DNA of 32,000 nt, taken from positions 89,588 to 121,587 of the forward strand of contig NC_006139.1 in the NCBI RefSeq assembly GCF_000025945.1. Direction: 5' to 3'. Under the pieces are notes generated by a model. That model had not been told where the DNA came from and did no database searches. It worked only from the letters and a program-made list of their open reading frames with translations. Each line of letters begins with the position of its first letter. Position 1 is the stretch's first letter. Shown piece after piece: positions 888 through 32,000 of the stretch. The position numbers were made by a program, and so were the translations under genes. This DNA comes from Desulfotalea psychrophila LSv54. GTDB lineage: Bacteria; Desulfobacterota; Desulfobulbia; Desulfobulbales; Desulfocapsaceae.

Positions 888-900
888 ATATAATATATTT

Positions 901-1983: not shown

Positions 1984-2205
1984 ATTTTTTTTATAAATTT
2001 CTTATCTCCTTAATTTCTTGTACTGAAAAGTAAAGCACAAGAAACCTGTCCCTTACGTTGAAGGGAGCATCTGATCGTGCTGGGACGCCTCTTGACAGGC
2101 AACGATTTTGCGATTTTTTGCTCCAGATCTGCCATCAAGGGCTTATCCACTCAAGATAGCGAAGAACCACATCATTTATGCCAAATACAAAACTCCCATA
2201 ATATG

Positions 2206-2641: not shown

Positions 2642-2659
2642 AGGGGGAAGTTTTCTCAA

Positions 2660-2680
2660 CAACAGATTGGCATCACTACC
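2660..2680 (+). repeat. second, solo IS1-type right terminal repeat 18 bp beyond the first
   Basis: The reverse complement of 2660-2680 is GGTAGTGATGCCAATCTGTTG, a third copy of the same IS1-type end in the same orientation as 2621-2641. It ends 7 bp from the stop codon of the polymerase gene. Confidence 0.6.
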
Positions 2681-2686
2681 CTATTT

Positions 2687-3829
2687 CTAAAAAAAATTGA
2701 AAATAAATTGGTAGGGCGCTATTTCCATACGACATCTATAGATTGTGACATAATAGTATGCTATACAAGAGATTAAGACGTAAATACAAAACACCCTAAG
2801 TAAAATATTATTCCTACTTTTAAAAATGAAATGGAAAAGCGTCGCATATATATAAAACCTATAAAACACAAAATAGCTGGCCAGCCTAACTCCCGTTTCG
2901 TGGCTTAACAAAATGGGATGCAAGATAATTCCTATATAGTATAAATTGTAAAATAAAATAAATCCATTTTTATTATAATTAGATTTAAGTAAGGGGCTAA
3001 AATAAATTGCTACCGTATCAACTACAATTAACAATAACACAAATAAACCAGTTGAATTTGCTTCAGAATAGTTCCGAGCAGTCTTTGCAAGAACATAGTC
3101 TATATTTCTAATATAATAGTTATACTGTCCTAAGTTTAAAAACGAAAGTCTATCGGTCAAAAGGCTTAGAATATTATTAAAGAAAAAATTTCCACATGTT
3201 AAGCAAATGAAAAAAAGAACAAGTTGCAATTTTACTGATTTTAAAATATCTCGTTGAACAATAAAGAGTAAAGGCAGGACAATTATGCCAGCTTTGTGAA
3301 TAACTAGTGCAAATATAAAATGAAACGAAAATGATATATAGTCCTTCTTTAAGAACTTTGTGATGGAATAAAAAATTATGAAGCTGGCAGCTGTTTGTCG
3401 CATAATATTCAACGACAAGAAAAAAATTCCTAATCCAAAAAAGAAGAAAAAGCACCAAACTACGATATGGATATTTTCTTTCATGATTTGAAGGAAATAC
3501 CAAATAGTTATAAATGCCAAAAATAGAATAAACCAATTATATCCATAATTATTAACAATTGGGAGAAAAAGGTAGTAGATCAGGTCTTTTGTTAAAAAAT
3601 TGTTACTACTCTCTACAAGCAAAAAATGATATTTGTACGAAAGGTAATCAATGCCGACATTTTCTCTTGTTCCAATTGTTAAAGTATAAAATAAAGTGAT
3701 CATATACCAAATAGGCCAAATCTCATTATTTTCTATAACATTGGAGTTGCGATTGATTTTGACTGATAAGCGCATCAAGCTCATCGTAAATACAAAAACT
3801 AAAGTATATATTGTGTATGCAAGTAACAT
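2687..3829 (-). CDS. EpsG-family / Wzy-type polysaccharide repeat-unit polymerase (polytopic membrane protein)
   Basis: 380 aa and extremely hydrophobic, with about 10 or more predicted TM stretches. The N-terminal region ..TIGTRENVGIDYLSYKYHF.. resembles the EpsG-family signature. AT-rich gene flanked by glycosyltransferases, as is typical for wzy. Confidence 0.7.
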   Translation of the reverse strand: MLLAYTIYTLVFVFTMSLMRLSVKINRNSNVIENNEIWPIWYMITLFYTLTIGTRENVGIDYLSYKYHFLLVESSNNFLTKDLIYYLFLPIVNNYGYNWFILFLAFITIWYFLQIMKENIHIVVWCFFFFFGLGIFFLSLNIMRQTAASFIIFYSITKFLKKDYISFSFHFIFALVIHKAGIIVLPLLFIVQRDILKSVKLQLVLFFICLTCGNFFFNNILSLLTDRLSFLNLGQYNYYIRNIDYVLAKTARNYSEANSTGLFVLLLIVVDTVAIYFSPLLKSNYNKNGFILFYNLYYIGIILHPILLSHETGVRLASYFVFYRFYIYATLFHFIFKSRNNILLRVFCIYVLISCIAYYYVTIYRCRMEIAPYQFIFNFF

Positions 3830-3840
3830 TGATAGAAAGT

Positions 3841-4935
3841 TTATAACTTTATATTGTTAATAAGTGATTGATAAACATCGACTGTTAAATCTCCAATTAT
3901 ATTCCAATTTAGTTCAGAATATAACTTTTTATGTCCTGCCTCACCAAAACGCTCTCTTTTTTCTTTACATATTAAAAGATCACATAATGCATTGGCAAGT
4001 TCGTTTACATTTTCTTTTTCAACTAATATTCCTGTTTTAAGATGATCTACAACCTCAGAGATAGCCCCCACATTACTAGCCACGACAGCTTTTTTAAAAT
4101 CATATGCTATAGGGATAATACCACTTTGACTTGCCTCTCTATACGGCAGGACAATCACACTTGCTTCTTGAAATAATTGAGAAATTTCTTCATCTGGGAT
4201 GAATTTGTTAATGATCTTATATTTATTATAGTCAGTAATTAATTTTTCATATTCTCCAAATTTTGAACATCTTCCAGCAACTATGATTTTGAGATTTTGT
4301 ATTTTCTTGGAAATTAAAGGCTCCGCTTTTATGAGAATATCTAGACCTTTATAGTGATGTATTCTCCCAAAGAATAGAATTGTATTTTCTTGTTCTTTGT
4401 AAAAATTACTATTCTTTAATCTATAGTAAGTTAGTGGCCCATGCGGGATTACATGAATTTGCTGATTTTCTATCCATGGATGTTTGTCGAGTAACTCATT
4501 TTTTAAAATCTCGCCATGAACTATAAACTTGTGTGACATTTTTCTCAAAATATGTTGAGTAATTTCAATCCACTTTTTTTCTTCTCCTATGTGAGATTTA
4601 ACATCATGTACTGTAATAACTATACCGTACTTTCGAAAAAGTAACCTCAGCGGAATAAACCAAACATGCTCTCCTTGAAAATGGATAATATCAGGTTTAA
4701 ATGATTTTACTTCAAAAAATATTTTAATAATTAAAATAATGTTTTTTAGCATATTTCGGATACGTGGCTTATGGAATTTAATAAAATCACCATGGAATCC
4801 GGCCTTATGCGATGAATCCATTAAATTACTATTATTAGAAACAAAAATGAACTTTTTTGATACTTTATCGCTAAGTCCTTCAGCCAATCCTAAAACATAT
4901 TCATCAAAATGGTACGATATATGTACAATCCGCAT
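3841..4935 (-). CDS. glycosyltransferase family 4
   Basis: The ORF track gives 3841-4989, but MRIVHISYHF (ATG 4933-4935) is the typical GT4 N-terminus. The C-terminal region YREASQSGIIPIAYDFKKAVVASNVGAISEVV..GILVE matches the GT4 nucleotide-sugar binding region. Confidence 0.85.
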   Translation of the reverse strand: MRIVHISYHFDEYVLGLAEGLSDKVSKKFIFVSNNSNLMDSSHKAGFHGDFIKFHKPRIRNMLKNIILIIKIFFEVKSFKPDIIHFQGEHVWFIPLRLLFRKYGIVITVHDVKSHIGEEKKWIEITQHILRKMSHKFIVHGEILKNELLDKHPWIENQQIHVIPHGPLTYYRLKNSNFYKEQENTILFFGRIHHYKGLDILIKAEPLISKKIQNLKIIVAGRCSKFGEYEKLITDYNKYKIINKFIPDEEISQLFQEASVIVLPYREASQSGIIPIAYDFKKAVVASNVGAISEVVDHLKTGILVEKENVNELANALCDLLICKEKRERFGEAGHKKLYSELNWNIIGDLTVDVYQSLINNIKL

Positions 4936-5090
4936 AATCCTTTTTCCATTATATTGCCAATAAATTAGTTTGTAGTTTGCACAAGACATTCATACCGTTT
5001 TCACAGTGACAAAAAAACCAATGAACTCTCATGTAAATTCAACCGAAAATACAAAATTAATAAAAAATTTATTATATGAGATATAAACCT

Positions 5091-6173
5091 TCACTCCAAC
5101 GTCCCCAAACATCTAAGAAATACATCAGATTTAATCCTCTCTTGCTGGATTATTTTATTTACTTTATCCCAATCAATTGAGCTTTTTATTATATCACTTG
5201 AGAAATCAGTAAGGTCAAAAACCAACCTATCATTTAAACCAAATATGTTTAGTAATGAATTAAATCTAGTATACCCTCTTTTTTTATTTGCATAAGCGAT
5301 AAATGGCTTATTAAAGATAATAGAAAATACAACTCCATGAAATGAGTCAGTAAATACAAAGTCTGCATCGTTAAAACCATTAATCCAACTATAAACCGAC
5401 CGGTAGTGAAAAAAAGACCAAAACAGTACTCGTTTCTCCAACTTCCTACCTACAGTAAAGGAATCCTTTTGCAAAATTTCACACACTTTTCTCGATAATT
5501 CGCTGTATGCAGGATTATCGTCTAAAAGATAGTGCAATACCTTCCCTTGATTATTTTCCTCCTGCACGTGCAAGCTACGGTACTCATCAGCATGCAGCAA
5601 AAAAGCAGGATCAAGCACCAGTTCCGCTTTAAAATTGAGATGATCTGCGCACAATTGGATCCCAGAATCTTCCCGCACAGAAACAGCAGTGAATCGATTT
5701 AATAATTGTTTTATATTTTCAGTTTCTTGCTCGTCTATCGTCCATTTGTCAATGCCGAAAGAGGCAGCAAAGGATAGTAATGTTTTATTGGAACTCGCTA
5801 CGAAGTCAAAAAAATATTCTTTTTTACTATCCTTAGTATAATCGAAACGCCAGACCTGATCGCTACCAACAATGAATGCATCAAAAGAATAATCAATACA
5901 ATTATAATCTTTTCTGCATGTAATTGGTTTTGTAAGTTTCATATTGCTGTATTCAAACTCTTTCATTGCAGAGTAATCAATAATTATTGGACAAAACCCT
6001 ATCATCTTCTTAACTAAATTTTTAAAATTTTGAAAATTTGATATTTGACTTGAAACCCTTTGAATAACTAAGACATCATGCCCTTGCTTTTTCAAATATG
6101 TCTGCAGTGCGTATGATTGCAATAATCCGCCATAATTGTTATTAAAGGGTAGCGTTAATATTCCTACTTTCAT
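5091..6173 (-). CDS. polysaccharide pyruvyl transferase family protein (WcaK/CsaB-like)
   Basis: 360 aa. The N-terminus MKVGILTLPFNNNYGGLLQSYALQTYLKKQGHDV is the characteristic start of PS_pyruv_trans family proteins. ..VGSDQVWR.. and the C-terminal ..TDSFHGVVFSIIFNKPF.. also fit. Confidence 0.85.
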   Translation of the reverse strand: MKVGILTLPFNNNYGGLLQSYALQTYLKKQGHDVLVIQRVSSQISNFQNFKNLVKKMIGFCPIIIDYSAMKEFEYSNMKLTKPITCRKDYNCIDYSFDAFIVGSDQVWRFDYTKDSKKEYFFDFVASSNKTLLSFAASFGIDKWTIDEQETENIKQLLNRFTAVSVREDSGIQLCADHLNFKAELVLDPAFLLHADEYRSLHVQEENNQGKVLHYLLDDNPAYSELSRKVCEILQKDSFTVGRKLEKRVLFWSFFHYRSVYSWINGFNDADFVFTDSFHGVVFSIIFNKPFIAYANKKRGYTRFNSLLNIFGLNDRLVFDLTDFSSDIIKSSIDWDKVNKIIQQERIKSDVFLRCLGTLE

Positions 6174-6253
6174 TAAATTCCTTACAGTTTTCTGTATAAG
6201 TTCCGAAATTTTACTAAAAAAATTTGATTACCACTAATGTTCAGCTAGTACAG

Positions 6254-7212
6254 GGCCTTGTTGCACAAATAGAAGTTGCTGACGCTGCTCGATGATGTTT
6301 TCTTGCAACATGGAGCATTGGAGGAGTTATGGGAGACAGTAGGAGAAAGATCAAAAACTGGCCGGAGTGGGGCACTAAAGCAATAGCTGTGACGTTTTGG
6401 GTGGACAAGAAAGCGATTGAAAGTTGGTACAGTACGACTGTATCAGAGCAGCGTGGCCGTGTCGCAAGTACGCGGATGATGCACGACCTGTTTGATGTGG
6501 AACCATTTATGGACTGTCTCTCAAGGGTACAGAAGGTTTTCTAAATTCACTTTTTGAACTGATGGATATCGACCTCCAGCCGCCTGATACACCTGTCAGT
6601 AGACGTGCACGAACTGTTGAGATGAATTGCAGGTTGCCAAGTCGTGGGACGATTAAGCATATCGATTCGACTGGGTGTAAACCATGGAGAAGGAGAGTGG
6701 AGCGTCAGAAAACACGGGGCTTCCAAACGTAGAACCTGGCGTAAAAGTCACCTTGCAATCGATACCGAGACTGATCGCCTAAGTGGTGAAATTTCTATGG
6801 AGTGAGTTCATGATTCCAAGGTATTGGGACCTCTTCGTCATCGCATTGAACAGATATCGGATGATGGCGCCGGACACGAAGGATTGCTATGCCGTGGCCA
6901 AGAAAAAAGGATCAGTTGCGACTATACCTCCACGGAAAAATGCTGACATGTGGGAGGATGGGCACCCACAAAATGATGCGGTAAAAGCACAGGGTGTCAT
7001 CAAAGGTCTCTTGCTGAAACGGCGATGTATCGCTACAAACAGTTGATCAGTGGCAAATTAAGCCTCCGCGAGGAGGCAAGCAGGTAGGGCTGCGATCAAG
7101 GCTTTGAACAAAATTAATACGTTAGGGATGCCTGTTCGAGAGGGCGTTTGCTAAGATGAAATGAAGCAGAGAGGGACTGATTTCCTTCTCTCATGATTTA
7201 TGCAACAAGGTC
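6254..7212 (+). mobile_element. IS5-family (IS903 group) element, decayed transposase
   Basis: Inverted ends: GGCCTTGTTGCACAAATAG (from 6254) versus the reverse complement of 7191-7212, GACCTTGTTGCATAAATCATGA. Plus-strand frames give RRKIKNWPEW..VTFWVDKKAIESWY.., ..GEGEWSVRKHGASKRRTWRKSHLAIDTETD.., ..LAETAMYRYKQLISGKLSLR.. and AIKALNKINTLGMPVREGVC*. These track the IS903 transposase (NWPAYN.., GEGEWKVKKHG..WRKLHLAVD, IAETAMYRVKQL, ALNKMTKAGMP). They are spread over all three frames with internal stops. Confidence 0.85.
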
Positions 7213-7617
7213 TCACCGAGACACTTTCTATCATCTTGAGCTCAACCATTTTTCCCGCCAATAGCCGCATAGCCCAGCGCTCTCCACCCTCTGAGATTTC
7301 TGAACACGCAAGCGCTAATAGATGAGCTTCAAACTCTCCGCCAAAGTGAATTTTCCTGGGTGGGGTTAATCGTTTCTTACGCTCAATAGCAGCTGTAACT
7401 CCCTGCTCAACTCATATATTCTAGACTACGAGTTGTGACGTCCCAAGCGCTTCTGCAACTTTGCTACAACCCATTTTGGCCCATATTCATCAGCATCAAG
7501 CACTAGGAGTGCTCTTGCATATAAAACGGTTCGAGCAGCTCTTCTCCCCTTTGTCGAAATAGCTTCCGGATCTTTGCGTTCTTCCTCAGTCAGTGTCACT
7601 CGATAATGTGGTGCCAT
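7213..7617 (-). pseudogene. IS630-family transposase, N-terminal HTH fragment, truncated by the IS903-like insertion
   Basis: Minus strand: MAPHYRVTLTEEERKDPEAISTKGRRAARTVLYARALLVLDADEYGPKWVVAKLQKRLG.. (ATG 7615-7617). After a frameshift near 7430 it continues ..VEQGVTAAIERKKRLTPPRKIHFGGEFEAHLLALACSEISEGGERWAMRLLAGKMVELKMIESVS. This pattern is typical of IS630-family N-terminal domains. The reading frame stops abruptly at the right end of the IS5-family element (7212). Confidence 0.75.
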
Positions 7618-7705
7618 CTCTTCCTCCAATTGATTATAATTATGGAGGATTATACAAGAAAACAAATAAACAGCGAACAGTTAAAGCTTACTGTGTACTA
7701 GGTGG

Positions 7706-17742: not shown

Positions 17743-18947
17743 TTAAAAATTATAATCGAGGCTTATTATGCCAAAGGTGTTTTGGTAAGACATGCCGGTT
17801 GCATTTGAGTCCCGATCTTCATAGCCTATTTCTAGGCTTACTATTAAATTCTGCAGTAGATCATAGCCAACAACAGCAGCTATTTTATAGGTGTTGTCAT
17901 CTCTATCGGTGTTGTTATCACCGTTATATACGTCATAAGCAGAGTTTTGGTAATACCCTTTAAGGGTGCTTGTTAATTTTTCCATGAACCGATAGCCCGC
18001 ATTCATGTTTAAACGAGTTGCCAGGTAATAGGAGTCGCCAGTTCCTGCATCATTGTAGTTCTGGGTCAGAGAGGTCAAAAAATGAAATTTGCGTTTTGTC
18101 GGATCTAAATCTGGTTTTTCCCCCTTCAGCGAAATGGCCCATGAGAAGCTGTCTCTATCCTCAACGGCAGCCTGATCAAAATTTCGTTTATGATAACCAC
18201 CGCCCACGTTAAATTGGAGATAATTGAAGTGGTACTGGTAGTTCAGCCAGACCTCGTTAGAGAGATAGTCACTGCTGTCTTCGCTATCGTAATCTCTGGC
18301 CCAAACGTCGTAGCTAATGAAAATTTTACTGTCACTGTTCAGGTGGTAGTTGAAGTCAAAGGTTCCCTTGTTTTGGATAGAGTCGGTGCCATCATCAGTA
18401 TAATCGGGATAGAGATTGCCATAGCCAGCTATGGCCGAAAATTTTTGGCCAAATTCATAATCCCAAACATCTCAAAATCATTGATCAGAAATTTTTCACG
18501 GTCTGTGGAGTTACTTAATTTATCGGCTTGGGCTGAATCTCGTGTGTAGTGGATTCGGTCGTAACCGTTGATGGCAAATCGATCTGTTACCTGCGAAGAG
18601 AGTGACAGGAAAGCTAGATATCCTAAATAGTTATCGTCACTTGCGCTTTTTACACCCGTTGGCCTACTGTCGAGGTTATCATAGATATACCCCTCTAGAA
18701 CGGCCATTCCTGTGATCTTGGTTTTGCCTGTATCGTAGACTGCCTCAATCCCAGGTCGAATTGTATAGGTCATCGTGCTGATTTCGTTATTTTCCGACAT
18801 CCAGAAGTTCGAGTCATATTGAGTTTCTACTTCAATGCTTGTGGTGATATCTGTTTTGGCAAAAGCAGGAGTTATTAAAAAAGAACTCAAACAGATAAAG
18901 AGACAAGATGACCCGAATGTTTTTGCAGAAACAATCTTTCTTTGCAT
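17743..18947 (-). pseudogene. outer-membrane beta-barrel protein of the EPS export module, split by a single frameshift near 18455-18462
   Basis: The N-terminal part (frame of ORF 18429-19040) has a real start MQRKIVSAKTF.. at 18945-18947, behind AAGAGGA. Its signal peptide is ..LSSFLITPAFA. The rest (frame of ORF 17743-18207) stays open upward to about 18430: ..YEFGQKFSAIAGYGNLYPDYTDDGTDSIQNKGTFDFNYHLNSDSKIFISYDVWARDYDS..NVGGGYHKRNF..ISLDYNF*. The protein shows an alternating beta-strand pattern and a terminal aromatic residue. The frames switch inside ..gggattatgaatttggccaaaaatttt.. . Confidence 0.7.
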
Positions 18948-19014
18948 TGTGTATCCTCTTCCGTGTGTAATCAGGCAAAACAAGTGTAATTGCCACGGAC
19001 TATTAGCCAATTTT

Positions 19015-20004
19015 CTAGATGGAACTTGCATCATTGTCATCTGCTTCAGAACTCTCTAAAACTTCTTCCATCTTCTCCTGCAACTCCGTAATCGCCTCAG
19101 GCATTGGACTTTCGTCTATAACTGGGACGGTGGCCTCTGTGGGTGCAGCGTCAACTACCGGTGTAGCATCAGCTAGGGGCGCAGCATCAGATTGAACCTC
19201 AGCAATATGTTGTGTCGCGGTCTCTACATTTGCCATGGAGACTTGAACTAGGGCCCCTTCTGACTGGTTATAGGCGTCAACAAGATTGTTTTCGACACTA
19301 GCAAGATCGGTATGAGTCTCGGCAGCGACTTCAGTGGAGAGAGCAACAATGGCCTCGGAGACGATCTGTATTTCCAGCGCTACAACTGTTTCAGTGCTCA
19401 GAGGCAGGTGGAGGTCATTTACGATAGCCGCATACATCTGTTCGGAAACTGCCTGTACCGCAGAAACCATTGCTGTATCTTGATCTGCACCAGCCGCAGT
19501 AGCATCGTGGTAGAGAGCGGTTAAACTCTCTTTGTCCGCCACGGGTACGGCCTTGATTGCGACCTCAATTATATGCTGCGTTGCAGTTGCCACATTTCCC
19601 ATGTCGATCTGAACTACGGCACCTTCTGAATGATTATAAGCACTAACGAGAATGTTTTCGACTGCGGTAAGGTCAGTATGGTTCTCAAACGTAACCTCAG
19701 CAGCCATTGTGACAATAGCCTCGGAAACAATCTGCGTTTCTAGCGCTGTAATTGCTTCAGCGCTTAGGGGCGTGAGAGATTTGTTTGCAATGGCCTTGTA
19801 CGTCTGCTCAGAGATTGTTTGTACAGCAGAAAGCATTGCTGCCTCTTGCCCTACGCCGGCAGCAGTAGCATCATGATACACAGCAAGTAATTGTTCTTTA
19901 AGTGCTGGAGGCGGACTCTCTTCGGCTGACATCGCGGTTTCCAGAGGGAGAAGCATCATGCAAATTAAAATTGCTGCTATCTTGAACCAAGTAACATTCT
20001 TCAT
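19015..20004 (-). CDS. secreted acidic Ala/Val/Glu-rich protein with two ~122-aa tandem repeats; no recognisable domain
   Basis: ATG at 20002-20004 behind GGAG. Signal peptide MKNVTWFKIAAILICMMLLPLETAMS. Two repeats follow (LLAVYHDATAAG...TATQHIIEV and LTALYHDATAAG...TATQHIAEV), then a Pro/Ala/Asp linker and an acidic tail ..EVLESSEADDNDASSI. Confidence 0.7.
   Translation of the reverse strand: MKNVTWFKIAAILICMMLLPLETAMSAEESPPPALKEQLLAVYHDATAAGVGQEAAMLSAVQTISEQTYKAIANKSLTPLSAEAITALETQIVSEAIVTMAAEVTFENHTDLTAVENILVSAYNHSEGAVVQIDMGNVATATQHIIEVAIKAVPVADKESLTALYHDATAAGADQDTAMVSAVQAVSEQMYAAIVNDLHLPLSTETVVALEIQIVSEAIVALSTEVAAETHTDLASVENNLVDAYNQSEGALVQVSMANVETATQHIAEVQSDAAPLADATPVVDAAPTEATVPVIDESPMPEAITELQEKMEEVLESSEADDNDASSI
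19192..19890 (-). repeat. intragenic tandem duplication, period 366 bp (2 x ~333 bp aligned)
   Basis: Protein positions offset by 122 aa align without gaps, with roughly 60% identity by eye. DNA copies differ at many synonymous sites, for example TAT CAT GAT GCT ACT GCT GCC GGC versus TAC CAC GAT GCT ACT GCG GCT GGT. Confidence 0.8.
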
Positions 20005-22885: not shown

Positions 22886-23573
22886 ATTTACCTTGCTGCA
22901 GCCCTGTCACCCAGCAGCCAACAATCCATGATCAATTAACCTCCTCAACGTCTCTCTTCAGGGCAACACAACCAATAAACTTACCCACCATCTCTGAGAC
23001 GGAAGTTTTTTTTGCAAACAACAATCTCTGAAAAAGCAACAACACCTTACCTTCGAGGTCATTGACGACAACGCCTACGTATCAGTTGTGTGGGGAGAGG
23101 ATAAGTGTTCTGGTACGCCAATATCTTTGTCTATTACTACATCATGGCTGCAACTCACCTATCTCAATACGTCTGCCGGATCGCTCTGACATGCCAGATC
23201 GGGCAGATATGCTATCACCTGGGTTTTGCCTGCTCTTCATTCTTTTATGTATAACTTTCCCTGTTCTGAATTGATGGATTTACCCGACACCAAAAACCTC
23301 CTTGTTAGAAGTTGCTTTTGGATTGGATTGTACCAAGAATGAACCGAATAAGTTAGTTGTCACACAATAGGGGCTCTCTCTCGATACTGGTAAATTATCA
23401 TGGTAAGCTTGCATGCTTTTGCACGAGTAAAGCTAAACAGAAACTTTCTGCTTTATCCTACACGAGAGCCTTTTCAAGGCACCTCCGCCACTCTTCATAA
23501 ACCGCACAATTTCATTTGCTAGTAACTAGCCGTTTTTTCGTATATATTCTTTATAATTTAAACCAATTCGTCA

Positions 23574-23605: not shown

Positions 23606-23670
23606 TGTAAACAAAATGTTTACATGTTTACAGTTGTATACGCCCGAAAACACTGGGGTTGATGTTTACA
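23606..23670 (+). promoter_or_regulatory. operator-like cluster: four copies of the 8-mer TGTTTACA (one inverted)
   Basis: TGTAAACA (23606-23613), aaa, TGTTTACA (23617-23624), TGTTTACA (23625-23632), then TGTTTACA (23663-23670). The first two form a perfect 8-bp inverted repeat with a 3-nt spacer. Confidence 0.55.
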
Positions 23671-23688
23671 CTAAAAAGGAGATTGAAA

Positions 23689-23790
23689 GTGACAACACCA
23701 CTTAGCATGAGAGTTAGCGAAGAAGTGAAAGAATCTTTTGGACTTTTAAAGACGGACTTTGAACCTCAATTGGACGAAAAGGTACTATAA
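23689..23790 (+). pseudogene. small ribbon-helix-helix-like ORF, 3' part replaced by transposon IR sequence
   Basis: AAGGAG (23676-23681), 7 nt, then GTG. Translation is VTTPLSMRVSEEVKESFGLLKTD-FEPQLDEKVL*. The TPLSMRVSEEVKE segment looks like the beta-strand/helix-1 start of CopG/Arc-type RHH proteins. From codon 22 onward the sequence is the Tn3-type IR. Confidence 0.45.
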
Positions 23791-23791
23791 G
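23754..23791 (+). repeat. left 38-bp Tn3-family terminal inverted repeat
   Basis: GGACTTTGAACCTCAATTGGACGAAAAGGTACTATAAG. It shares about two thirds of its positions with the Tn3 IR GGGGTCTGACGCTCAGTGGAACGAAAACTCACGTTAAG, including the GGAACGAAAA-type core and the terminal TAAG. It ends 53 bp from the tnpA stop. Confidence 0.8.
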
Positions 23792-23844
23792 CCCACTACA
23801 TCTTTCCCCAAAGGATTGATGTCGTCCTTTGCCAACTGAAAGTT

Positions 23845-26800
23845 TCAAACATTACCGAATTCCAAATCCAGTTGATTTAGCGGCCTGTGTTCACCAGCCA
23901 GAATAATATCGGCCAATTTGAATGAATAGCGACCCAGAACATTAATATGCTCATAACGTAATGGTGACAGGGTTGAGATGTCGTCGTCCAGTATAGTCAT
24001 TCCACTTTGCCTCAGGTGATGTATTGCGTCTTGCATATAAATTGTATTCCAAAGCACAACAGCATTGGTAATGAGGCCAAGAGCACCAAGTTGATCCTCC
24101 TGCCCCTCACGGTAATGTTTACGAATTTCACCTCTACGACCATGGCAAATCACTCGTGCAAGATCATGTCGTTTTTCAGTCCGATTAAGTTGTGTGAGTA
24201 TCCGCCTCCTGTAGCCTTCATCGCTTACGAAATTTAGTAAGTAAATAGTCTTGTTGATACGGCCCACCTCCATTATTGCCAGAGTCAGGCTGGTCGGTCG
24301 TTCACTTTTGAGCAAGGATCGTATAAGCTCTGACGCTTGAATCGTGCCGAGCTTCAATGAACCGGTAACGCGTAGCATATCATCCCAGTGATGCACTATA
24401 CGTTCTGTATTCAAATAGTTGCTTGCCAATTCATCAAGAGGACCGTAATGGGCATCTCGATCTACACGCCAAAATTTGGCATCTCCAGCATCAGCGAGAC
24501 GCGGCGAGAATTGATATAACCAAGCAGCCAAAATAGACCGAACACCAAGTCACTAGCACCGCTGGTGTCTGTCATAATCTCTTTTGGGCGTAAACCAGTT
24601 TGTTGTTCCAACAAGCCCTCCAACACATAAATAGAATCACGTAACGTGCCAGGTATCACGATGCAATGAAAACCGGAAAACTGATCAGGCATAAAGTTGT
24701 ACCAGGTAATACCACGACCACCTCTTGGAAAATACTTGGGATTCGGCCCTGAGTGAATCGTTTTTACAGGCGTCACAAAGCGCAATCCATCAGCCGAGGC
24801 AACGTCACCGCCTCCCCAAAGATTGGCTAATGAGAGCGTTGACTGATGATCAACCAGACGTGCGTTGGCTCGGACAAGGGTTTCTCCACGGAGATAGTTT
24901 TGCTTCACCCAACTCAGCCTGTGGCGTGTTAGTGCCGGTACATTGGGTTGAATTAATGGGTCCATACCTATATTGCAGGCCTCGGCCAGCAACACAGCGC
25001 AAACACTGACAGGTAGATCGTCAACACGGGCCCGGGCTTCACTCACATGTTTAAATTCGTCGGCAAAACCGGTAAGTGCATTTATCTCTAAAACTATTTC
25101 TGTGAGATCGATCTTTGGCAATAGGTTGCCAACGAGTTTCCGAAGTTCAACAAGACTGGCAGGTTCCTCCTCTTTCTCCAGATTGGTGATTGTCAGGGTT
25201 GGTCGGTCCCCTGTATGGTCAACACGTACTGCATCGTTAACCTCGAAATTGGCAGCGACACTTCGGTAAGTAGTATCAAGCTGTTGAGTGAGTCTCTGTA
25301 ACCCCTCTTCACCGTCAACCGAGTGGCCCAGTGACCGACAGACTTGGACACAATGGGATTGCCATTCAGTGCTGTCGAGCATCTTTATTCGAGGGTCGCC
25401 CCAGCGGTCACTGTTATTGACATATACATCACGGCGACGCAAGCTATCCTGCAACTTGTCTAGAAAACAAAGAATATAGCCACGTGTCATCACTCGGTTT
25501 TGCTGATCAAACACCAGCCGTTGCCACGACTTACTGATGATCTCAAGAGGAGCATCATCTAAAAATTGCTTACGAGTTGGAACCAGTTCACTTAAGTAGT
25601 TGAGTGAGGCCATTGTGATTGTTCCTGCTGGCGCACAGTCAAAACAAATATTGTTCAACAATGATGCCAGAAACAGCTTAACCCGGCCGTATTGTTCCAC
25701 CATTTCTTCATGAAAATGTCCTCCAGGAGGCCTCGCAATTTCGTTGACTGTTGCAATGGACTGTTTGAGTTGGTCTTTGGGAACACAGGCATAGATTGCT
25801 TCACGCAACTGATCATTGCTCATTTCATCGTTCAACACCAGCGCACATACCTGGGCTAATGTTAACGCCGATCTATCTAGGTCCTTCAAGGTGCGCAAAC
25901 GCTTTTTCTTGCCAAGTAACACCTGGCCTTTCCCGCAATATCTGTGATAAGCAGATCGAGTACATCCAACGCATCGTCCAGAGCGATAATCTCGAACGCC
26001 TTCACAAAGGCGACCAAGATTCCAATCCTCTTTTCATCGGACATTCGAGAAATCTGCCATTGCGAAAGTATTCCTGCTTGTCGTGCTATGCTTTTAAAGC
26101 GTGCGGCCGGGATACTGGAGAAGTCGAGGTTTTGTAATCCATAAGCTCTTAAATTACTGTAGCGTTCAACAGTCTCAACAAAAGATGGTCCGCTAATATT
26201 GAAGGGTCCTTTGCGAAAACGATCAAATTGTGAATTGCGTTGATCTTGAGGAACCACTAGCAGTTCCTCAAGTGCCCTCTTCTGCTCCTGAGTGGGTAAG
26301 AAGGCCAGACGCTTCCATAGTTGATTTGACACTCGTTCACGGATTTCAATAATGAGTCTTTGCAAGATTGTTGCTCCTGGCAGGAGTACTCTGTTTTGAA
26401 TAAGCCAAGCGGTACCCATGTCAAACATTAAACTGGGACGTTCATTGTTGATCCAGGATCAACTGTAGAGAAAACGGCTGAGCCGAAAACGCCAGGGTGG
26501 TGCATTAAAAGTGTGATAACCATAATGGCTCTGAATTTCAGATCGATGAGCGAGGCGAGTGGCTCGTCGATTCATGTAGGCACTGAGATTATCAAGGTTT
26601 GAAATGGAAAGTTGAGCTGCAATGAATTGCAAAACGTTACGCGGCACCTGTGTGGGATCGGACAGAAAGGTGCCTAAAAAACGAACGGTAGTCAGCTGCA
26701 AAGCATACCCCAGGCGATTGTAATCACCATGGCAGTTTTCTACGAGCGCACGATCCGTATCATCGAGATGGAAATAGCGGGACAATTGAGCATCATCCGG

Positions 26801-26860
26801 ATCACCTTCATAGCGGCCATATTGACGACGCTTAAAAGTTGTTAGGAAATCTCTAGCCAT
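23845..26860 (-). pseudogene. tnpA: Tn3-family transposase, inactivated (1 nonsense + 2 frameshifts)
   Basis: Four consecutive ORFs (26459-26917, 25886-26428, 24462-25922, 23845-24531) together cover a ~1000-aa TnpA. The real start is MARDFLTTFKRRQYG (ATG 26858-26860), 1 nt after the tnpR stop. An in-frame TGA lies at 26459-26461 (..RFLYS*SWINNERPSLMFDMGTAWL..). A frameshift lies near 25915-25925 (..DIAGKAR / LLGKKKRLRTLKDLD..). Another lies near 24513-24517 in tatat (..FGLFWLLGY / QFSPRLADAGDAKFWRVD..). Confidence 0.9.
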
Positions 26861-26861
26861 G

Positions 26862-27422
26862 TTATTCCGACATGCGAAGGTACTGATACAATGTTTCGCG
26901 GCTGATCCCAAAATCACGCGCGATCTGTGTTTTCTGTTCGCCAGCTATTACTCGGGATTTTACGATGGCAATGTCAGCATCAGAGAGGGCACGTTTTCGG
27001 CCGCGATATGCACCGCGTTGTTGGGCCAGCGTAATGCCCTCCCTTTGGCGTTCACGGATCAAAGCTCGCTCGAATTCTGCAAAGGCTCCCATAACTGATA
27101 ACAAGAGATTGGCCATTGGAGAATCCTCACCTGTGAACGTCAGGTTTTCTTTAACAAACTCGATCCGAATTCCACGCTGTGTCAATTCTTGAACTAAACG
27201 GCGCAGATCGTCAAGGTTTCGAGCTAGTCGGTCCATGCTATGCACGACCACTGTATCTCCTTCACGTATAAAAGAAAGAAGTAGGTCTAGCTGGGGGCGT
27301 TGAACATCTTTACCAGATGCTTTGTCGGTGAAGACTTTATCAACGTGAACGTTTTCGAGTTGTCGCTCCGTATTCTGATCAAGGGTGCTTACCCGGATAT
27401 AGCCTATTCGATGCCCCTTCAT
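26862..27422 (-). CDS. tnpR: serine recombinase, Tn3-family resolvase (intact)
   Basis: 186 aa. MKGHRIGYIRVSTLDQNTERQ.. contains the catalytic Ser motif. ..HSMDRLARNLDDL.. and ..GAFAEFERALIRERQREGI.. are also present. The C-terminal HTH is ..QIARDFGISRETLYQYL. AGGAGG lies upstream of the ATG at 27420-27422. Confidence 0.95.
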   Translation of the reverse strand: MKGHRIGYIRVSTLDQNTERQLENVHVDKVFTDKASGKDVQRPQLDLLLSFIREGDTVVVHSMDRLARNLDDLRRLVQELTQRGIRIEFVKENLTFTGEDSPMANLLLSVMGAFAEFERALIRERQREGITLAQQRGAYRGRKRALSDADIAIVKSRVIAGEQKTQIARDFGISRETLYQYLRMSE

Positions 27423-27565
27423 GGTGCCTCCTGGTTAAAGTGTCAGGTTGAAGTCTATGACTCTAGGCAACATATGTCAAGAATTAAGAAAGACGACTCT
27501 ATACTGACGTATATTATGATACTACCCTGACGTCAGCATAGGGTATACTCTACTCTGACAAATGA
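27423..27565 (-). promoter_or_regulatory. probable res (resolution) site / tnpR promoter region
   Basis: Located immediately upstream of tnpR. Contains several TGTCA/TGACA half-sites (TGTCAG ~27441, TGTCAA ~27474, CTGACG ~27503, TCTGACA ~27553). Also a dyad TACCCTGACGTCAGCATAGGGTA centred on the palindrome TGACGTCA (~27524-27546). Subsites were not resolved. Confidence 0.5.
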
Positions 27566-27830
27566 AGGAGTAATTAGATACAATGCCTGGAATGACCTAT
27601 CATTTGTGAATTTATCGTTCATGCCGTGGTATCTGCAATCCTGCCTGACATAATTTTCTTGACCAAAACAGACAAGATGGAGCCAAAATCCTCCTCCAGT
27701 TCAAAGATTCAGGAATCCCAGCTATGCCACCTAATAACTGAGGCAAAGGTGTTCATGGATAAGCTCGAATTCCAGATTTCGCTTTCGGCGTTAGGGTTTT
27801 GGAGCCGACGATGTGTCTGAAAACAGTCGA

Positions 27831-27866
27831 CATCTTGAGCCGGAATAATTTGATAGTCTCAAGATG
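27831..27866 (-). terminator. possible terminator hairpin after the TetR gene
   Basis: Perfect 9-bp inverted repeat CATCTTGAG (27831-27839) / CTCAAGATG (27858-27866) starting 3 nt after the stop. The loop is long (18 nt) and the downstream U-tract is weak (uguuuuc). Confidence 0.3.
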
Positions 27867-27868
27867 TT

Positions 27869-28462
27869 TCATCTGGAAATCTTCACATCTTTGAGATTAG
27901 CTTTTCCCCCCAAGGCATCCAAATAAAAAGTGATTGGACCTCTTGCCACGTCAACTGTCAGAGATTTGTTACCATCATTACAGCGTGCCGCTAAAGCAAA
28001 CCCGTGCAAATAATCGACTAGCAAATCCATTGCATCTTTCTTGTCGGGCTCAGGTAAGTTCAGCGGAGATAGAATTTCTTCGAACCTGGAGATAAATATT
28101 TTTGCAGGACTTACATCCGACATTGCGAGCATAGTCTCAAGAAGTCCTGCATAATCTTGCAGCAATCTCAAATAGCTAACGCTTAGACATAACAATTCAT
28201 CTCGCCAAGATTTATGTCCATCAGGTTCATAAATCGACTCCATCAAATCCACAGTTACTGCCTCAAGGATCGCAGTTTTATTGGAGTAGTAGTAATAAAT
28301 AGCCATCGGATCGACATCCAGCGTAGAAGCAATTTTCCTAATACTCGGAACCTTGCCACTTTGCTCTAACAATCTTACAGCTGACTCAACTATCGCCTCT
28401 GAAGAAAGTTTCCCACCCATTTTCAAAGGTCGCCCTCTTTTTTTATTCTTGACACTCATCAT
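27869..28462 (-). CDS. TetR/AcrR-family transcriptional regulator
   Basis: MMSVKNKKRGRPLKMGGKLSSEAIVESAVRLLEQSGKVPSIRKIASTLDVDPMAIYYYYSNKTAILEAV is a canonical TetR N-terminal HTH. About 197 aa from the ATG ATG at 28462/28459. The longer ORF-track start adds an implausible Cys/Tyr-rich leader. Confidence 0.85.
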   Translation of the reverse strand: MMSVKNKKRGRPLKMGGKLSSEAIVESAVRLLEQSGKVPSIRKIASTLDVDPMAIYYYYSNKTAILEAVTVDLMESIYEPDGHKSWRDELLCLSVSYLRLLQDYAGLLETMLAMSDVSPAKIFISRFEEILSPLNLPEPDKKDAMDLLVDYLHGFALAARCNDGNKSLTVDVARGPITFYLDALGGKANLKDVKISR

Positions 28463-28516
28463 ATCTCCGGTGTATTTAACCGACACTTTTTCTACACTGT
28501 AGAATAATATGTACGA

Positions 28517-28549
28517 GCAATAATGGCAAGATTTAATTGTCATTATTGC
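28517..28549. promoter_or_regulatory. candidate TetR operator in the divergent tetR / reductase intergenic region
   Basis: GCAATAATGGCAA-gatttaa-TTGTCATTATTGC. The arms are 13 bp with one mismatch and lie between the two divergent starts. Confidence 0.5.
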
Positions 28550-28585
28550 ACAACGATAAGTAAAATGGATGATTTAGGAGTTAAC

Positions 28586-29122
28586 ATGGCAAATATTGTA
28601 TTTATTGGCGTAAGTCTCGATGGTTACATAGCTGACAAGGATGGAGGACTTGAGTTTCTCCAATGTATTCCAAACCCTGAACACGATGAACTTGGCTTTC
28701 CTGAGTTCATGGCCAGCATAGATGCTCTACTTATGGGAAGAAACACTTATGAAACTATCCTTAGCTTTGGAGGGGAATGGCCATACTCAAAGCCAGTATT
28801 TGTTTTATCCAACTCACTCACATCCCTTCCAGAACATCTCAAAGGTAAAGGTGAGCTTATTATAAGCGGATCAGTTGAAGAAGTAACACAGCAACTCAAT
28901 CAGCAAGGATTCACGAATCTCTACATTGATGGTGGAAAACTGATCCAGAGTTTCTTGAAGCTCGATATGATAGATGAACTCGTTATCTCAAAAATACCGA
29001 TTTTGCTCGGAGGGGGAACCTCTCTATTTGGAGATCTTCAATCTCATCTCATGTTTGAGCATGTAAGTACGGAAGTGCTACTCAATGCAATTGTGCAATC
29101 GCATTATAAACGTATAAGGTAG
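28586..29122 (+). CDS. dihydrofolate reductase family protein (RibD C-terminal domain type)
   Basis: TAGGAG-ttaac-ATG. MANIVFIGVSLDGYIADKDGGLEFL..ALLMGRNTYE..PVFVLSN..LYIDGGKLIQSFLKLDMIDELVISKIPILLGGGTSLF is the typical RibD_C/YwjB-like pattern. 178 aa. Confidence 0.85.
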   Translation: MANIVFIGVSLDGYIADKDGGLEFLQCIPNPEHDELGFPEFMASIDALLMGRNTYETILSFGGEWPYSKPVFVLSNSLTSLPEHLKGKGELIISGSVEEVTQQLNQQGFTNLYIDGGKLIQSFLKLDMIDELVISKIPILLGGGTSLFGDLQSHLMFEHVSTEVLLNAIVQSHYKRIR

Positions 29123-29411
29123 AGAAAAGATTTAACCTGCCAACCATCAAGAGGAAGGTCAAGACTGGCCTTCTTCCTGAAAGGAGCTATCAGATAGAAT
29201 GGGTTTGCCCCAAAATGGAGTAAATGCAAAGAAGAGATAACCAAAGATAATCTTCTCCAAAAAATTGTCATGGATAAGATCAATTCTCAAATTGCGTTTT
29301 TGTTGTTGTGATGTACAGGAAGAGTCTCTACTTTTGGTCTGATATTAAATACATAGACCTTCGATATGGCTATATCAGCCCTGAATCGTAACTCTCTTTT
29401 TGAGGCCTATT

Positions 29412-29915
29412 CTATCCATTAAATGCAGTACCGTACGCTACTTCACCAGCAGGCAAGATGTTTTCTTTATTAGCCAGTGATCGAATTAGAAAATACTCAG
29501 AAGGCACACCCGGTAATATCAGATTTTTATTTGCCTTAAAACCAAAACGACCGTAATATCCTGGCTCGCCAAGCAGCACAATGCCACCCGCACCTTGTTT
29601 TTTTTAACTCAGCAATACCGGCTTCAATCAACTGGCTGCCAATACCTTCCCTTTGACGACTTGGACTAACCGAAACAGGGCCCAACCCATACCAGTTAGC
29701 TGAAACTGCACCAATAGTCACTGGAGAAAAAGCAATATGCCCAACAATCCCCGCTTCAACTTCGGCAACCAATGATAAACTAAGGGTACCATTGTCTCGA
29801 AGCTTATTAATGATCATGTGCTCTGTGGGGCTCGCCTCCGGTTCATGATGAGGGTGATTTTCAAAAGCCTGGTAAGTTAATGCTTCAATTTTGTTATGAT
29901 CTGAAATTATCTCGA
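29412..29915 (-). pseudogene. GNAT-family N-acetyltransferase, frameshifted in a T8/A8 run and lacking a canonical start
   Basis: Frame 1 reads (K)IRFEIISDHNKIEALTYQAFENHPHHEPEASPTEHMIINKLRDNGTLSLSLVAEVEAGIVGHIAFSPVTI..WYGLGPVSVSPSRQREGIGSQLIEAGIAELKK. After the homopolymer at 29598-29605 the conserved continuation is in another frame: QGAGGIVLLGEPGYYGRFGFKANKNLILPGVPSEYFLIRSL..*. The position where the family normally starts (M-x-IR) reads ATA. Confidence 0.75.
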
Positions 29916-31090
29916 ATCTTATTTTCCTTTTTTAGTACAAACATCTGATACCCATACTGCCCCAGATATTTCTGATGTATTTCTAATTCGCTTTGAATAT
30001 CCTCAAGCGCTTGAGATGTAAAATCTCTCTGCGGCAATTGTTTTACTTTGGTAGTAAGCGGGTTGAGATAATTGCCCCACGCCTGCTTACTCAATTCAAA
30101 GCTATCAATTATTTTATAGCCAGCGTTCTCAATCAATTGATACCTGCTGGCAACCGTTACCATATCTGGATAATTTTGTTGCCAAAACTTAAGCACCTCA
30201 TTTTCTGGTGATTCAGTTAACCAAACCAAGTCACTAAATACTAAAAACCCTTCCTCTTTAATGAAAGGTTTCCAGTCTTCCAGTGCCTGTGGTACACCCA
30301 TGATATAAGCACTCCCTTCTGACCAGATCACATCAAACTGATGTTCTGAAAAAGACATATCGGTCATACTTGCACAGACGGCAGTCACCTTACCCAATTG
30401 TGATTTCCGATCCAAACTCTCCCTCAAGCAAGCCAGGCTGTATTCGTCATTATCCAACGCTGTGACAGAAAATTGAGTTTGTTCAGCAAGTAAAATAGTC
30501 ACTACACCCTTTCCACAACCTATATCGAGTAGTTCACCAGATTTAACAGGAATAGTGTTAATTGCCTGTAATGAATCAATTTCATCCCCTGGCCCTAATC
30601 GTTCTAATCCCTCAAAGATCAGCTCAAAGTCAGCCATATATTGCTCATGTTCATTCATATCTTTTGATAACCATTTAAGTCTCAATGCCTGTTTCTCGCT
30701 AAATCCTTGCTTCATTAGCCAGTTTAAGTGTGCTAAAGGGGCTTGTTTATCAATGGATTGATGCCATTCTCTCATAGAAGTCATACCCAGCATTGAGCAG
30801 AGCAGGTCTCTGGATTTTTGTTTTTGGGCTATCTCCTCATCCAGCACTTTAAGACGTTGAAGTAGCCTTTCCCTATCAATGCGTGCTTCCAAACATGCAC
30901 GACATTCTTTTAGCGTCAATCCTCCTGCTTGGAGTTGCTGCAACAATTTTAATTGCTGAACATCTTGTTCAGAGTAATTTCGGTATCCATTCGCCTGTCG
31001 TTTCGACGAAATCAGCCCGAGCTTTTCGTAATAAAGAATCGTTGAGCGACTCAATCCGACTTTGTGTGCTAATGCAGAAATACGATACAT
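29894..31090 (-). CDS. MerR-family HTH domain fused to a class I SAM-dependent methyltransferase
   Basis: The N-terminus MYRISALAHKVGLSRSTILYYEKLGLISSKRQANGYRNYSEQDVQQLKLLQQLQAGGLTLKE is a MerR HTH plus coiled coil. The C-terminal half has methyltransferase motif I, LLDIGCGKGVVTILLAE, and the post-I/II regions (..VTALDND.., ..FDVIWSEGSAY..). A strong AAGGAGAGG lies before the ATG at 31088-31090. Confidence 0.85.
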   Translation of the reverse strand: MYRISALAHKVGLSRSTILYYEKLGLISSKRQANGYRNYSEQDVQQLKLLQQLQAGGLTLKECRACLEARIDRERLLQRLKVLDEEIAQKQKSRDLLCSMLGMTSMREWHQSIDKQAPLAHLNWLMKQGFSEKQALRLKWLSKDMNEHEQYMADFELIFEGLERLGPGDEIDSLQAINTIPVKSGELLDIGCGKGVVTILLAEQTQFSVTALDNDEYSLACLRESLDRKSQLGKVTAVCASMTDMSFSEHQFDVIWSEGSAYIMGVPQALEDWKPFIKEEGFLVFSDLVWLTESPENEVLKFWQQNYPDMVTVASRYQLIENAGYKIIDSFELSKQAWGNYLNPLTTKVKQLPQRDFTSQALEDIQSELEIHQKYLGQYGYQMFVLKKENKIRDNFRS

Positions 31091-31113
31091 AAATGCCTCT
31101 CCTTTGTGAACAC

Positions 31114-31144
31114 ATCATAAACTATGAAGTTGTAGACAGGTCAA
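31114..31144 (-). promoter_or_regulatory. candidate promoter with 19-nt spacer upstream of the MerR-fusion gene
   Basis: Minus strand reads TTGACC (31144-31139), a 19-nt spacer, then TATGAT (31119-31114). An over-long 19-bp spacer is the hallmark of MerR-regulated promoters. No clear dyad was seen in the spacer. Confidence 0.35.
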
Positions 31145-31378
31145 GGTTGATTGTTACTAATGTGATATTTTTTCGGTATAGATTCAAGAGTTGGTACGCT
31201 GAGAAGACAGTACTGTCAACCTGGTTCTGAAGCTTGGAACTGGAGATTTCAACATGATATCAAAGATATAAAGTTAATATTCTTCCTATGGAGATAGAAT
31301 CAGACACTTCATTGGAATTATTCAAAAATGGAGTAATTGAAAAGTAGAGCTTACCAAAGAGAAGGTTTCGATCTTCTC

Positions 31379-31415
31379 CTTAGCGTCGGCTTTCGTTCTA
31401 TTGGGTTTCAAAACC
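31379..31415 (-). repeat. second, divergent Tn3-type IR abutting the inner side of the right IR
   Basis: The reverse complement is GGTTTTGAAACCCAATAGAACGAAAGCCGACGCTAAG. It has the same architecture (GGT.TTTGAA...GAACGAAAG...ACGCTAAG), but only about 26 of 38 positions match the functional pair. Confidence 0.55.
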
Positions 31416-31453
31416 CTTATAGTACTTTTTCGTCCATTTGAGGTTCAAAGACC
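31416..31453 (-). repeat. right 38-bp Tn3-family terminal inverted repeat
   Basis: The reverse complement is GGTCTTTGAACCTCAAATGGACGAAAAAGTACTATAAG. It mismatches the left IR only at positions 3, 17 and 28. Confidence 0.8.
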
Positions 31454-31669
31454 GAAGACCCTTTGCCAGGAGGCTACCAGTGCTTCCGAGGGTTTTGTAG
31501 CCCTCTCAAGGCCGCTTTTACTGCTGATCGCATCGTTCCCATTCAGATCTAACCCTTGGAATCCGATCACCTTGATTTCAGTTTTAACGATATTTCATTC
31601 GAAGGAAATGAGATCCGTTTTGTCATTGAGTGGAAGGTGGATCAATTGCTGTTTTGTGAATTTTGGCAA

Positions 31670-32000
31670 AAGCTGTTTTTCTAGAGCGTACGTTGTCTAA
31701 GTTATCTTTTTGGACGCGTAGGTTGTTCACAGTGCGGTTTGTTGGTTTGTTTTGGAGTAAGACATAGGTGGGGTGGTATTTTTTAGATTGTTGAGCGCAG
31801 AGTAAATATGGGTCTTTTTGGTTTTTCTTGGAGAAGATAAGTAGGGGGTTGTTAGAAGCTGTTTTTCTAGAGAGCATGTTGTCCTTGCTATCTTTATGGG
31901 TGTCTAGGGCGCCTGTGGTGTAGCCTGGTGACTTAGTTTAAGGCGAAGCATAGGTGGATATGGTATTTTTAAGATCGTTAAGTATAGGGTGAATATGAGC
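31670..32000 (+). repeat. ~186-bp tandem repeat array (two units plus a degenerate upstream unit), truncated by the window edge
   Basis: Unit starts AAGCTGTTTTTCTAGAG lie at 31670 and 31856. A second conserved block, CATAGGTGG..TGGTATTTTT.A.AT.GTT.AG....G.GT.AATATG.G, lies at 31763 and 31949. Both are offset by 186. The segments between the blocks differ. The plus strand is markedly G+T rich. Confidence 0.75.

Follow-up and report, generated by a model that had tools for sequence, protein, structure and literature searches.

A decayed Tn3-family transposon downstream of an exopolysaccharide gene cluster of Desulfotalea psychrophila LSv54

The DNA stretch analysed here, referred to as the window, comprises 32,000 nucleotides of Desulfotalea psychrophila LSv54 (contig NC_006139.1, positions 89,588 to 121,587). 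An exopolysaccharide gene cluster occupies window bases 1-22885, and a 7,700-bp Tn3-family element is inserted about 0.9 kb downstream of it, at 23754-31453. The element is bounded by two 38-bp inverted repeats, left (IRL) and right (IRR). Counted from IRL, it contains the transposase gene tnpA, the resolvase gene tnpR, the resolution site res, genes for a TetR-family regulator and a dihydrofolate reductase (DHFR)-like protein, a GNAT acetyltransferase pseudogene, and a gene encoding a MerR-methyltransferase fusion, followed by IRR (Table 1). The locus is very probably a Tn3-family unit transposon with an imperfect target duplication, which is now decayed and non-autonomous.

Relatives of the element are present in metagenomes and metagenome-assembled genomes (MAGs). 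The reference copy L001 (Logan SRR23636737, 5.1 kb) contains tnpR followed by an intact tnpA encoding 1003 amino acids, and is 98.1% identical in nucleotide sequence to the window over the segment IRL-tnpA-tnpR-res. Other relatives are L002 (GCA_024449855.1) and L010, L008, and L011 from Desulfobulbaceae and Desulforhopalus MAGs. Complete elements were delimited in L020 (577-4547), L017 (318-4288), L007 (4646-8126), and L014 (4582-9054). L020 is a 3.97-kb element without cargo, L017 is the same element, and L007 has only tnpA with remnants of tnpR. In contrast to the window copy, those from metagenomes and MAGs retain an open tnpA, which in L001 is full length, and beyond res they carry other cargo or none. 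A search for near-identical DNA in 72,556 plasmids found only short matches of 72-76% identity to the MerR region and tnpR.

Table 1. Window coordinates of the features of the element and of the repeat copies that flank it
Feature	Position	Strand	Description
Left flanking copy of target repeat	23749..23753		AAGAC; AAAGAC if 6 bp, from 23748
IRL	23754..23791	+	38 bp, GGACTTTGAACCTCAATTGGACGAAAAGGTACTATAAG; identical to inverted repeat of intact copy L001
tnpA pseudogene	23845..26860	-	Tn3-type transposase, ~1003 codons if repaired; four ORF fragments
tnpA lesion 3	24515..24518	-	TA>TATA tandem duplication, +2 frameshift, codon ~781; L001 and L002 have GGTTATCAA
tnpA lesion 2	25919..25922	-	GT>GTGT tandem duplication, +2 frameshift, codon ~314; L002 has AGGTTAC
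tnpA lesion 1	26459..26461	-	Nonsense TGA, codon 134; CGA in 6/6 other copies
tnpR	26862..27422	-	Serine resolvase, 186 aa, intact; Pfam Resolvase and HTH_7; exact-sequence look-up
res region	27423..27560	-	138 bp, conserved block, repeated YGTCAG..TAG half-sites
Proposed res site I	27531..27560	-	TGTCAGAGTAGAG-TATA-CCCTATGCTGACG (13+4+13), outermost half-site pair
TetR-family regulator	27869..28462	-	197 aa from second Met cluster; Pfam TetR_N
RibD_C / dihydrofolate-reductase-family protein	28586..29122	+	178 aa, full length; Pfam RibD_C
Captured block (module 2), MerR-methyltransferase and GNAT	29312..31287	-	93.6% nucleotide identity to L030/L031
GNAT acetyltransferase pseudogene	29412..29928	-	Start ATG>AGG at 29928-29926; +1 A at 29605
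MerR-HTH / SAM-methyltransferase fusion	29894..31090	-	398 aa; 13-bp deletion at ~29935
IRR	31416..31453	-	38 bp, GGTCTTTGAACCTCAAATGGACGAAAAAGTACTATAAG on - strand
Right flanking copy of target repeat	31454..31459		G + AAGAC (GAAGAC); AAGAC itself at 31455-31459

The inverted repeats match at 35 of their 38 positions, with three mismatches, and no such pair occurred in 100 dinucleotide-preserving shuffles. The likeness of L001 to the window ends exactly at base 23754, which is the start of IRL. A genome scan with the L001 transposase (TnpA) and a metagenome scan with the repeat core identified more than 20 related termini in other contigs, all starting with GG(T/A)C(T/A)TTGAACC. The sequences outside the GG are unrelated, and the adjacent base differs each time. 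L027 has IRR and about 100 nt of inner sequence in common with the window before continuing into a different flank, and it is the only relative with the inner ~100 nt of the window's right end. Because this GG is the shared starting point of more than 20 related termini and L027 matches the right end, both ends of the element (23754 and 31453) are firm, in agreement with the repeats and boundaries of the original prediction, which had been made from the sequence alone. A length of 39 bp, obtained when a repeat search extended the pair by one base, was rejected, since the base beyond the GG differs among all the related termini. The consensus of the repeats, GGTCTTTGAACCTCAATTGGACGAAAAAGTACT(A/C)TAAG, is the same in the window element and in the metagenomic and MAG copies. 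The repeat pattern had no match in viral contigs, and a search with the repeats found no second copy of the element in the window.

The tips of the repeats read GGAC and GGTC instead of GGGG. Tips of GGGG are usual in the Tn3 family, although they are not treated as strictly defining, and they were read in E. coli plasmid pMAR7 and in L028. Because more than 20 related termini, including those of the intact L001 and of L020, have GG(T/A)C, this tip is a trait of the lineage and not damage. The control for the comparison was a real Tn1/Tn3 transposon with blaTEM-2, read from pMAR7 (NC_010862.1). Its inverted repeat, GGGGTCTGACGCTCAGTGGAACGAAAACTCACGTTAAG, is flanked by a perfect TAATA duplication and has the same base as the window repeat at 25 of the 38 positions, including ACGAAAA and the inner TAAG, which bears out the Tn3-like core previously recognised in the repeats. 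As a separate observation, the heptamer AAAGACC, formed by 23747-23753 together with 31460, is identical to the last seven nucleotides of IRR on the plus strand (31447-31453); the right junction therefore reads ...AAAGACC-G-AAGACC.... The insertion of Tn3 beside sequences resembling the end of its inverted repeat is an old observation.

The membership of the element in the Tn3 family is confirmed by Pfam, NCBIfam, the inverted repeats, and the resolvase. Together, the four fragments of tnpA cover the Pfam domains DUF4158 (1-164) and DDE_Tnp_Tn3 (1-389). The intact TnpA of L001 scores 999 bits against NCBIfam model NF033527 transpos_Tn3, which has a cut-off of 500, and its match in the PDB is the TnpA of Tn4430 (E = 1e-126). 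Pairwise identities of the L001 protein are 59.4% over 995 aa with the PGAP 'Tn3-like element Tn3 family transposase', 60.7% with ISEc63, 66.5% with a copy on a Nitrosomonas plasmid, and approximately 48% with copies from Pseudomonas and Xanthomonas. The Tn3 subgroup is the clade of TnpA that contains Tn3 (Lima-Mendez et al. 2020, PMC7157771), and by pairwise identity the transposase is probably of the type of this subgroup.

The five base pairs directly outside the fixed ends are AAGAC on the left and GAAGA on the right, with an extra G at 31454. The flanking repeat is thus either offset by one base or a 6-bp AAAGAC/GAAGAC pair matching at five of six positions. The chance of the 5-mer recurring at an offset of 0 or +1 is about 0.0025, and a 6-mer with no more than one mismatch would recur with a probability of about 0.006. 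Reports on Tn3-derived elements describe target duplications of 5 or 6 bp (PMC4133298). In the relative L020, which lacks cargo, ATTAC forms a perfect 5-bp duplication abutting GG tips like those of the window. Both readings of the flanking repeat lead to the same predicted empty site, ...TTTTAAAGACCCTTTG... (also written ...CTTTTAAAGACCCTTTGCC and ...TTTTAAAGACCCTTTGCC...), after the removal of 23754-31459.

Removal of the element creates an open reading frame (ORF) of 101 codons from GTG 23689 to TAA 31698-31700. An AAGGAG sequence (23676-23681) is positioned 7 nt upstream of the GTG, and the opposite strand is likewise open across the predicted junction. Neither a Pfam domain nor a homologue was found for the fused ORF, and its right part had a single marginal match (E = 5e-4) among 1.84 billion representatives. 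The flanks fuse into one open frame, as predicted, but the frame is without support as a gene, and it cannot be asserted that the insertion interrupted one. The adjacent host gene has its best non-self relative in Desulfobacterales, with an identity of 48% or less. Because this nearest relative is so distant, no empty site was recoverable by comparison. The flanks had no match in plasmids searched in distant mode, and an exact-protein look-up of the adjacent host gene found it not on record.

The tnpA gene is disabled by an in-frame TGA and two frameshifts, as in the original prediction, and comparison with L001-L006 located all three lesions and showed that they are unique to the window copy. 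The resulting fragments on the minus strand (26917..26459, 26428..25886, 25922..24462, and 24531..23845) are distributed among three frames: the first two are in the same frame and split by the TGA, whereas the fragments starting at 25922 and 24531 are shifted. Private changes of the window copy were counted where at least two comparators agree. There are 15 nonsynonymous (including the stop) and 9 synonymous changes in tnpA, in comparison with 0 and 1, respectively, in tnpR. The pattern in tnpA fits relaxed constraint. Programmed recoding was rejected as an explanation of the frameshifts, since copies at 98% identity lack the insertions. The cargo is also partly decayed, which the original prediction had overlooked. 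The GNAT gene has lost its start codon and contains a frameshift caused by an extra A in an A8 run (29598-29605). The gene of the MerR-methyltransferase fusion has a 13-bp deletion near its 3' end, which rewrites the last residues of the protein; the relatives are 390-392 aa long.

Because of the nonsense codon and the two +2 duplications in tnpA, the element is non-autonomous. The earlier claim that it is fixed in place was too strong: both inverted repeats are intact, so mobilisation in trans is possible, and Tn3-derived elements without a transposase were moved in trans (PMC4133298). By analogy, a cognate TnpA supplied in trans could move the element of the window.

The original prediction holds in almost every respect. 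The element belongs to the Tn3 family as an ordinary member that arrived recently and is now decaying. Its insertion would have followed the replicative paste-and-copy route of the family and left a short target duplication, which today is imperfect. One part of its cargo, the operon of the MerR-methyltransferase and GNAT genes, was copied from a chromosome resembling that of L030. After the insertion, tnpA, the GNAT gene, and the fusion gene decayed, producing a non-autonomous element. Several points weigh against this explanation. The previously claimed AAGAC duplication with a 1-nt ambiguity stands in that AAGAC occurs on both sides, but it is not a clean 5-bp repeat and the offset is real. 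A two-anchor search for the empty site in metagenome contigs (241 million metagenome records) had no match, and the insertion event is deduced from this one sequence. Furthermore, two other 1-nt indels of the window are in homopolymers, the A8 run of the GNAT gene and an A5T4 run in a host porin gene, and some indels could be assembly errors.

All relatives with a tnpR gene share the conserved 138-nt res block, but the sequences of L002, L008, L014, L017/L020, and L026 are unrelated from there on, past TGTCA at 27560. The half-sites suggest that res is divided into three subsites. At about positions 140-175, L002 contains a chimeric site I, of which the left half-site resembles that of L008, a Desulforhopalus MAG, and the right half-site that of the window. 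The switch in parentage falls in the 4-bp centre of site I and, judged from the alignments, has the signature expected of resolvase-mediated exchange at this site. The chimera is direct sequence evidence that recombination at res shuffles cargo in this lineage. In the window copy, TnpR is intact and res conserved, and the two could still catalyse site-specific recombination with another copy. The original prediction of a live resolvase, able to resolve or recombine, holds to the extent of an intact ORF and a conserved res, and no further.

It is conceivable that the 7.7-kb unit never transposed as a whole, and that its cargo half, from res to IRR, was swapped in situ by TnpR-mediated recombination between two res sites, or that the junction was rearranged. 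Such events would account for the imperfect target repeat and for the differing types of inverted repeats, since IRL is identical to the tnpA-side repeat of L001 and IRR is of the L027/L023 type. The abrupt end of the likeness to many relatives at res and the site I recombinant L002 agree with a swap, as do L007, L014, and L017, in which the target repeats on the flanks do not match. The non-matching flanks of these three relatives suggest later rearrangements or assembly joins. The presence of AAGAC on both sides of the window element (p ~0.003) argues that both ends come from one insertion event, and a difference of 3/38 between left and right repeats is normal for the family. Moreover, a swap at res leaves the flanks untouched and is hence compatible with the insertion of a transposon, not an alternative to it. 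An origin without transposition of the whole unit is therefore unlikely.

The cargo consists of two modules. Module 1 (27561-29311) contains the divergent pair of TetR and RibD_C/DHFR-like genes, and its RibD_C protein is 55-58% identical, at 100% coverage, to products of Photobacterium, Pseudoalteromonas, and Vibrio genes. The counterpart of module 2 in L030/L031 is a non-transposon locus, in which the gene of a 392-aa MerR-methyltransferase fusion overlaps a GNAT gene encoding 171 aa. The fusion family has 972 homologues, mostly from marine Gammaproteobacteria. The content of guanine and cytosine (GC) is 40% in the cargo, 46.5% in the element core, and 47% in the host genes. None of the cargo proteins reached a curated cut-off of NCBIfam, and exact-protein look-ups returned no record for either the MerR-methyltransferase or the RibD_C protein. 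That the cargo is unrelated to resistance, as predicted, is consistent with the absence of known resistance families among the matches, but is not proven. It is quite improbable that the locus records a recent cross-phylum transfer of regulatory and metabolic cargo of marine gammaproteobacterial type, comprising both modules, into a Desulfobacterales chromosome, with tnpR and res kept by selection, once the transposase was dead, as a portable recombination system that goes on swapping cargo between copies. If this were the case, a Tn3-subgroup lineage with unusual GG(T/A)C tips would circulate in marine and sediment bacteria.

Short coding-like repeats are present on the minus strand of the cargo at 27753-27792, 29212-29307, and 31325-31363. 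The motif KRNL..(D/E)LIH(D/E) occurs twice in the cargo with 73% nucleotide identity, and (I/L)(I/L)FG.L.F..TPF occurs twice with 85% identity and also beside the inverted repeat of L027, at about 1860-1900. An earlier cargo gene or junction probably left these repeats behind, and their order fits no simple model.

It was also considered that the element is autonomous and that the lesions in tnpA and the cargo are sequencing or assembly artefacts, for example from a consensus of several copies. The host lacks a sequenced relative, and the contig had a MAG-like appearance. At least two 1-nt indels of the window are in homopolymers (the GNAT A8 run and AAAAATTTT of the host porin gene), and metagenomes contain intact copies that encode an identical TnpR. 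Nevertheless, the three tnpA lesions do not include any homopolymer indel, as they consist of a C>T nonsense change and two duplications of a dinucleotide in tandem. The 14 further private amino-acid changes in tnpA, set against 9 synonymous ones, and the 13-bp deletion and start-codon loss in the cargo complete a pattern that matches decay and not read error. An artefactual origin of the lesions is thus very improbable.

The tnpR gene is intact and, as predicted, ends 1 nt from the start of tnpA: its stop codon is at 26864-26862 and the ATG of tnpA at 26860, with the same spacing in L001. TnpR contains the S12 context GYIRVST and the DRLAR motif, and it is 33.7% identical to the Tn1/Tn3 resolvase. 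Its PDB matches to Gin invertase and to the Tn3 and gamma-delta resolvases have about equal scores. According to the exact-sequence look-up, an identical TnpR protein is encoded in eight other contigs, including L001-L006. The other genes of the element have accumulated about 6 disabling lesions in ~4.7 kb (~1.3 per kb). At this rate, the 561-nt tnpR would escape by chance about half the time, and its intactness is therefore not evidence of selection. The proposal that selection has preserved tnpR and res as a domesticated module for site-specific recombination, serving for instance in stabilisation or switching near the polysaccharide locus, can draw on the single private synonymous change in tnpR against 24 private changes in tnpA, the unchanged res half-sites, the conservation of TnpR among contigs, and its likeness to Gin, but it is extremely unlikely given the lesion rate, the 98% identity to free copies that marks a recent arrival, and the lack of a second res or inverted res-like site in the 32-kb window.

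Like Tn3, Tn1, and Tn2, the element and its relatives have a TnpA of ~1000 aa and a serine resolvase with res, and a short AT-rich target duplication is present both in pMAR7 (TAATA) and in the relative L020 (ATTAC). Unlike in Tn1/Tn3, where tnpR and tnpA are divergent with res between them, the two genes of the window are colinear and res is upstream of tnpR. The GG(A/T)C tips, the divergent resolvase, and the dead tnpA are further differences from Tn1/Tn3, and regulatory and metabolic cargo takes the place of the beta-lactamase. The gene order and the position of res, with site I distal to tnpR, correspond to Tn21 and Tn501, in which res, tnpR, and tnpA are colinear. However, at 59% identity, TnpA resembles the Tn3 type far more than a member of the Tn21 subgroup would be expected to, and the element contains neither a mer operon nor an integron. 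The element also resembles the TIMEs, and TIME-RES in particular, in having Tn3-type 38-bp inverted repeats without a working transposase, together with a resolvase gene and res. TIMEs are moved in trans and generate 5- or 6-bp duplications in AT-rich DNA, and one non-autonomous element derived from Tn3 carries a resolvase and res (Szuplewska et al. 2014, PMC4133298). Whereas TIMEs have no tnpA and are 0.26-3.9 kb long, the window element keeps a full-length tnpA pseudogene.

With this element, a family best known from clinical plasmids gains a completely delimited transposon, probably of the Tn3 subgroup, from a little-sampled, Desulfobacterales-like host lineage. The intact reference copy, 98% identical to the element, shows how such an element decays after insertion. 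The alignments of the relatives cleanly exemplify the exchange of cargo at site I of res, and they document a transposon lineage with GG(T/A)C instead of GGGG tips. The understanding of Tn3-family elements is unchanged by these findings. In the annotation, 23754-31453 can be described as a non-autonomous Tn3-family element with two pseudogenes.

Both flanks of the element contain repeated sequences. Just upstream of the ORF starting at GTG 23689, the region 23608-23670 contains repeated and palindromic TGTTTACA motifs (TGTAAACAAAATGTTTACATGTTTACA ... GATGTTTACA), which resemble an array of operators bound by a small DNA-binding protein; no homologue was found. About 200 nt to the right of the transposon begin two direct repeat units of ~186 nt (31663-31848 and 31849 onward), which are 69-75% identical and continue past the window edge. 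On the other side of the insertion, at 23302-23319, an 18-nt segment of the unit recurs. The interpretation of these units as integron attC-like sites or a known RNA was unsupported, as they had no Rfam match and a fold z-score of -0.56 relative to shuffles. Rfam and tRNA scans of the window found nothing.

Within the neighbouring polysaccharide cluster, a beta-barrel porin gene (BBP2_2; 17743-19040, minus strand) is split into ORFs of 203 and 154 aa by a single frameshift at GGCCAAAAATTTTCGG, near 18429-18445. The split reflects either a pseudogene in the host or an assembly error in a homopolymer, which bears on the trust in the 1-nt indels of the contig. The 1.4-kb region 6241-7665 contains only short ORFs with weak, sub-threshold matches to DDE_Tnp_1 and DDE_Tnp_1_5, two transposase domains of IS type, and is probably a degraded insertion sequence. 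It is positioned at the junction of two parts of the cluster: the glycosyltransferase, EpsG, and pyruvyl-transferase part (1-6200), with a GC content of 25-33%, and the export and regulation part, with 47-50%. The low GC content of 1-6200 is typical of an exchanged, serotype-specific segment.

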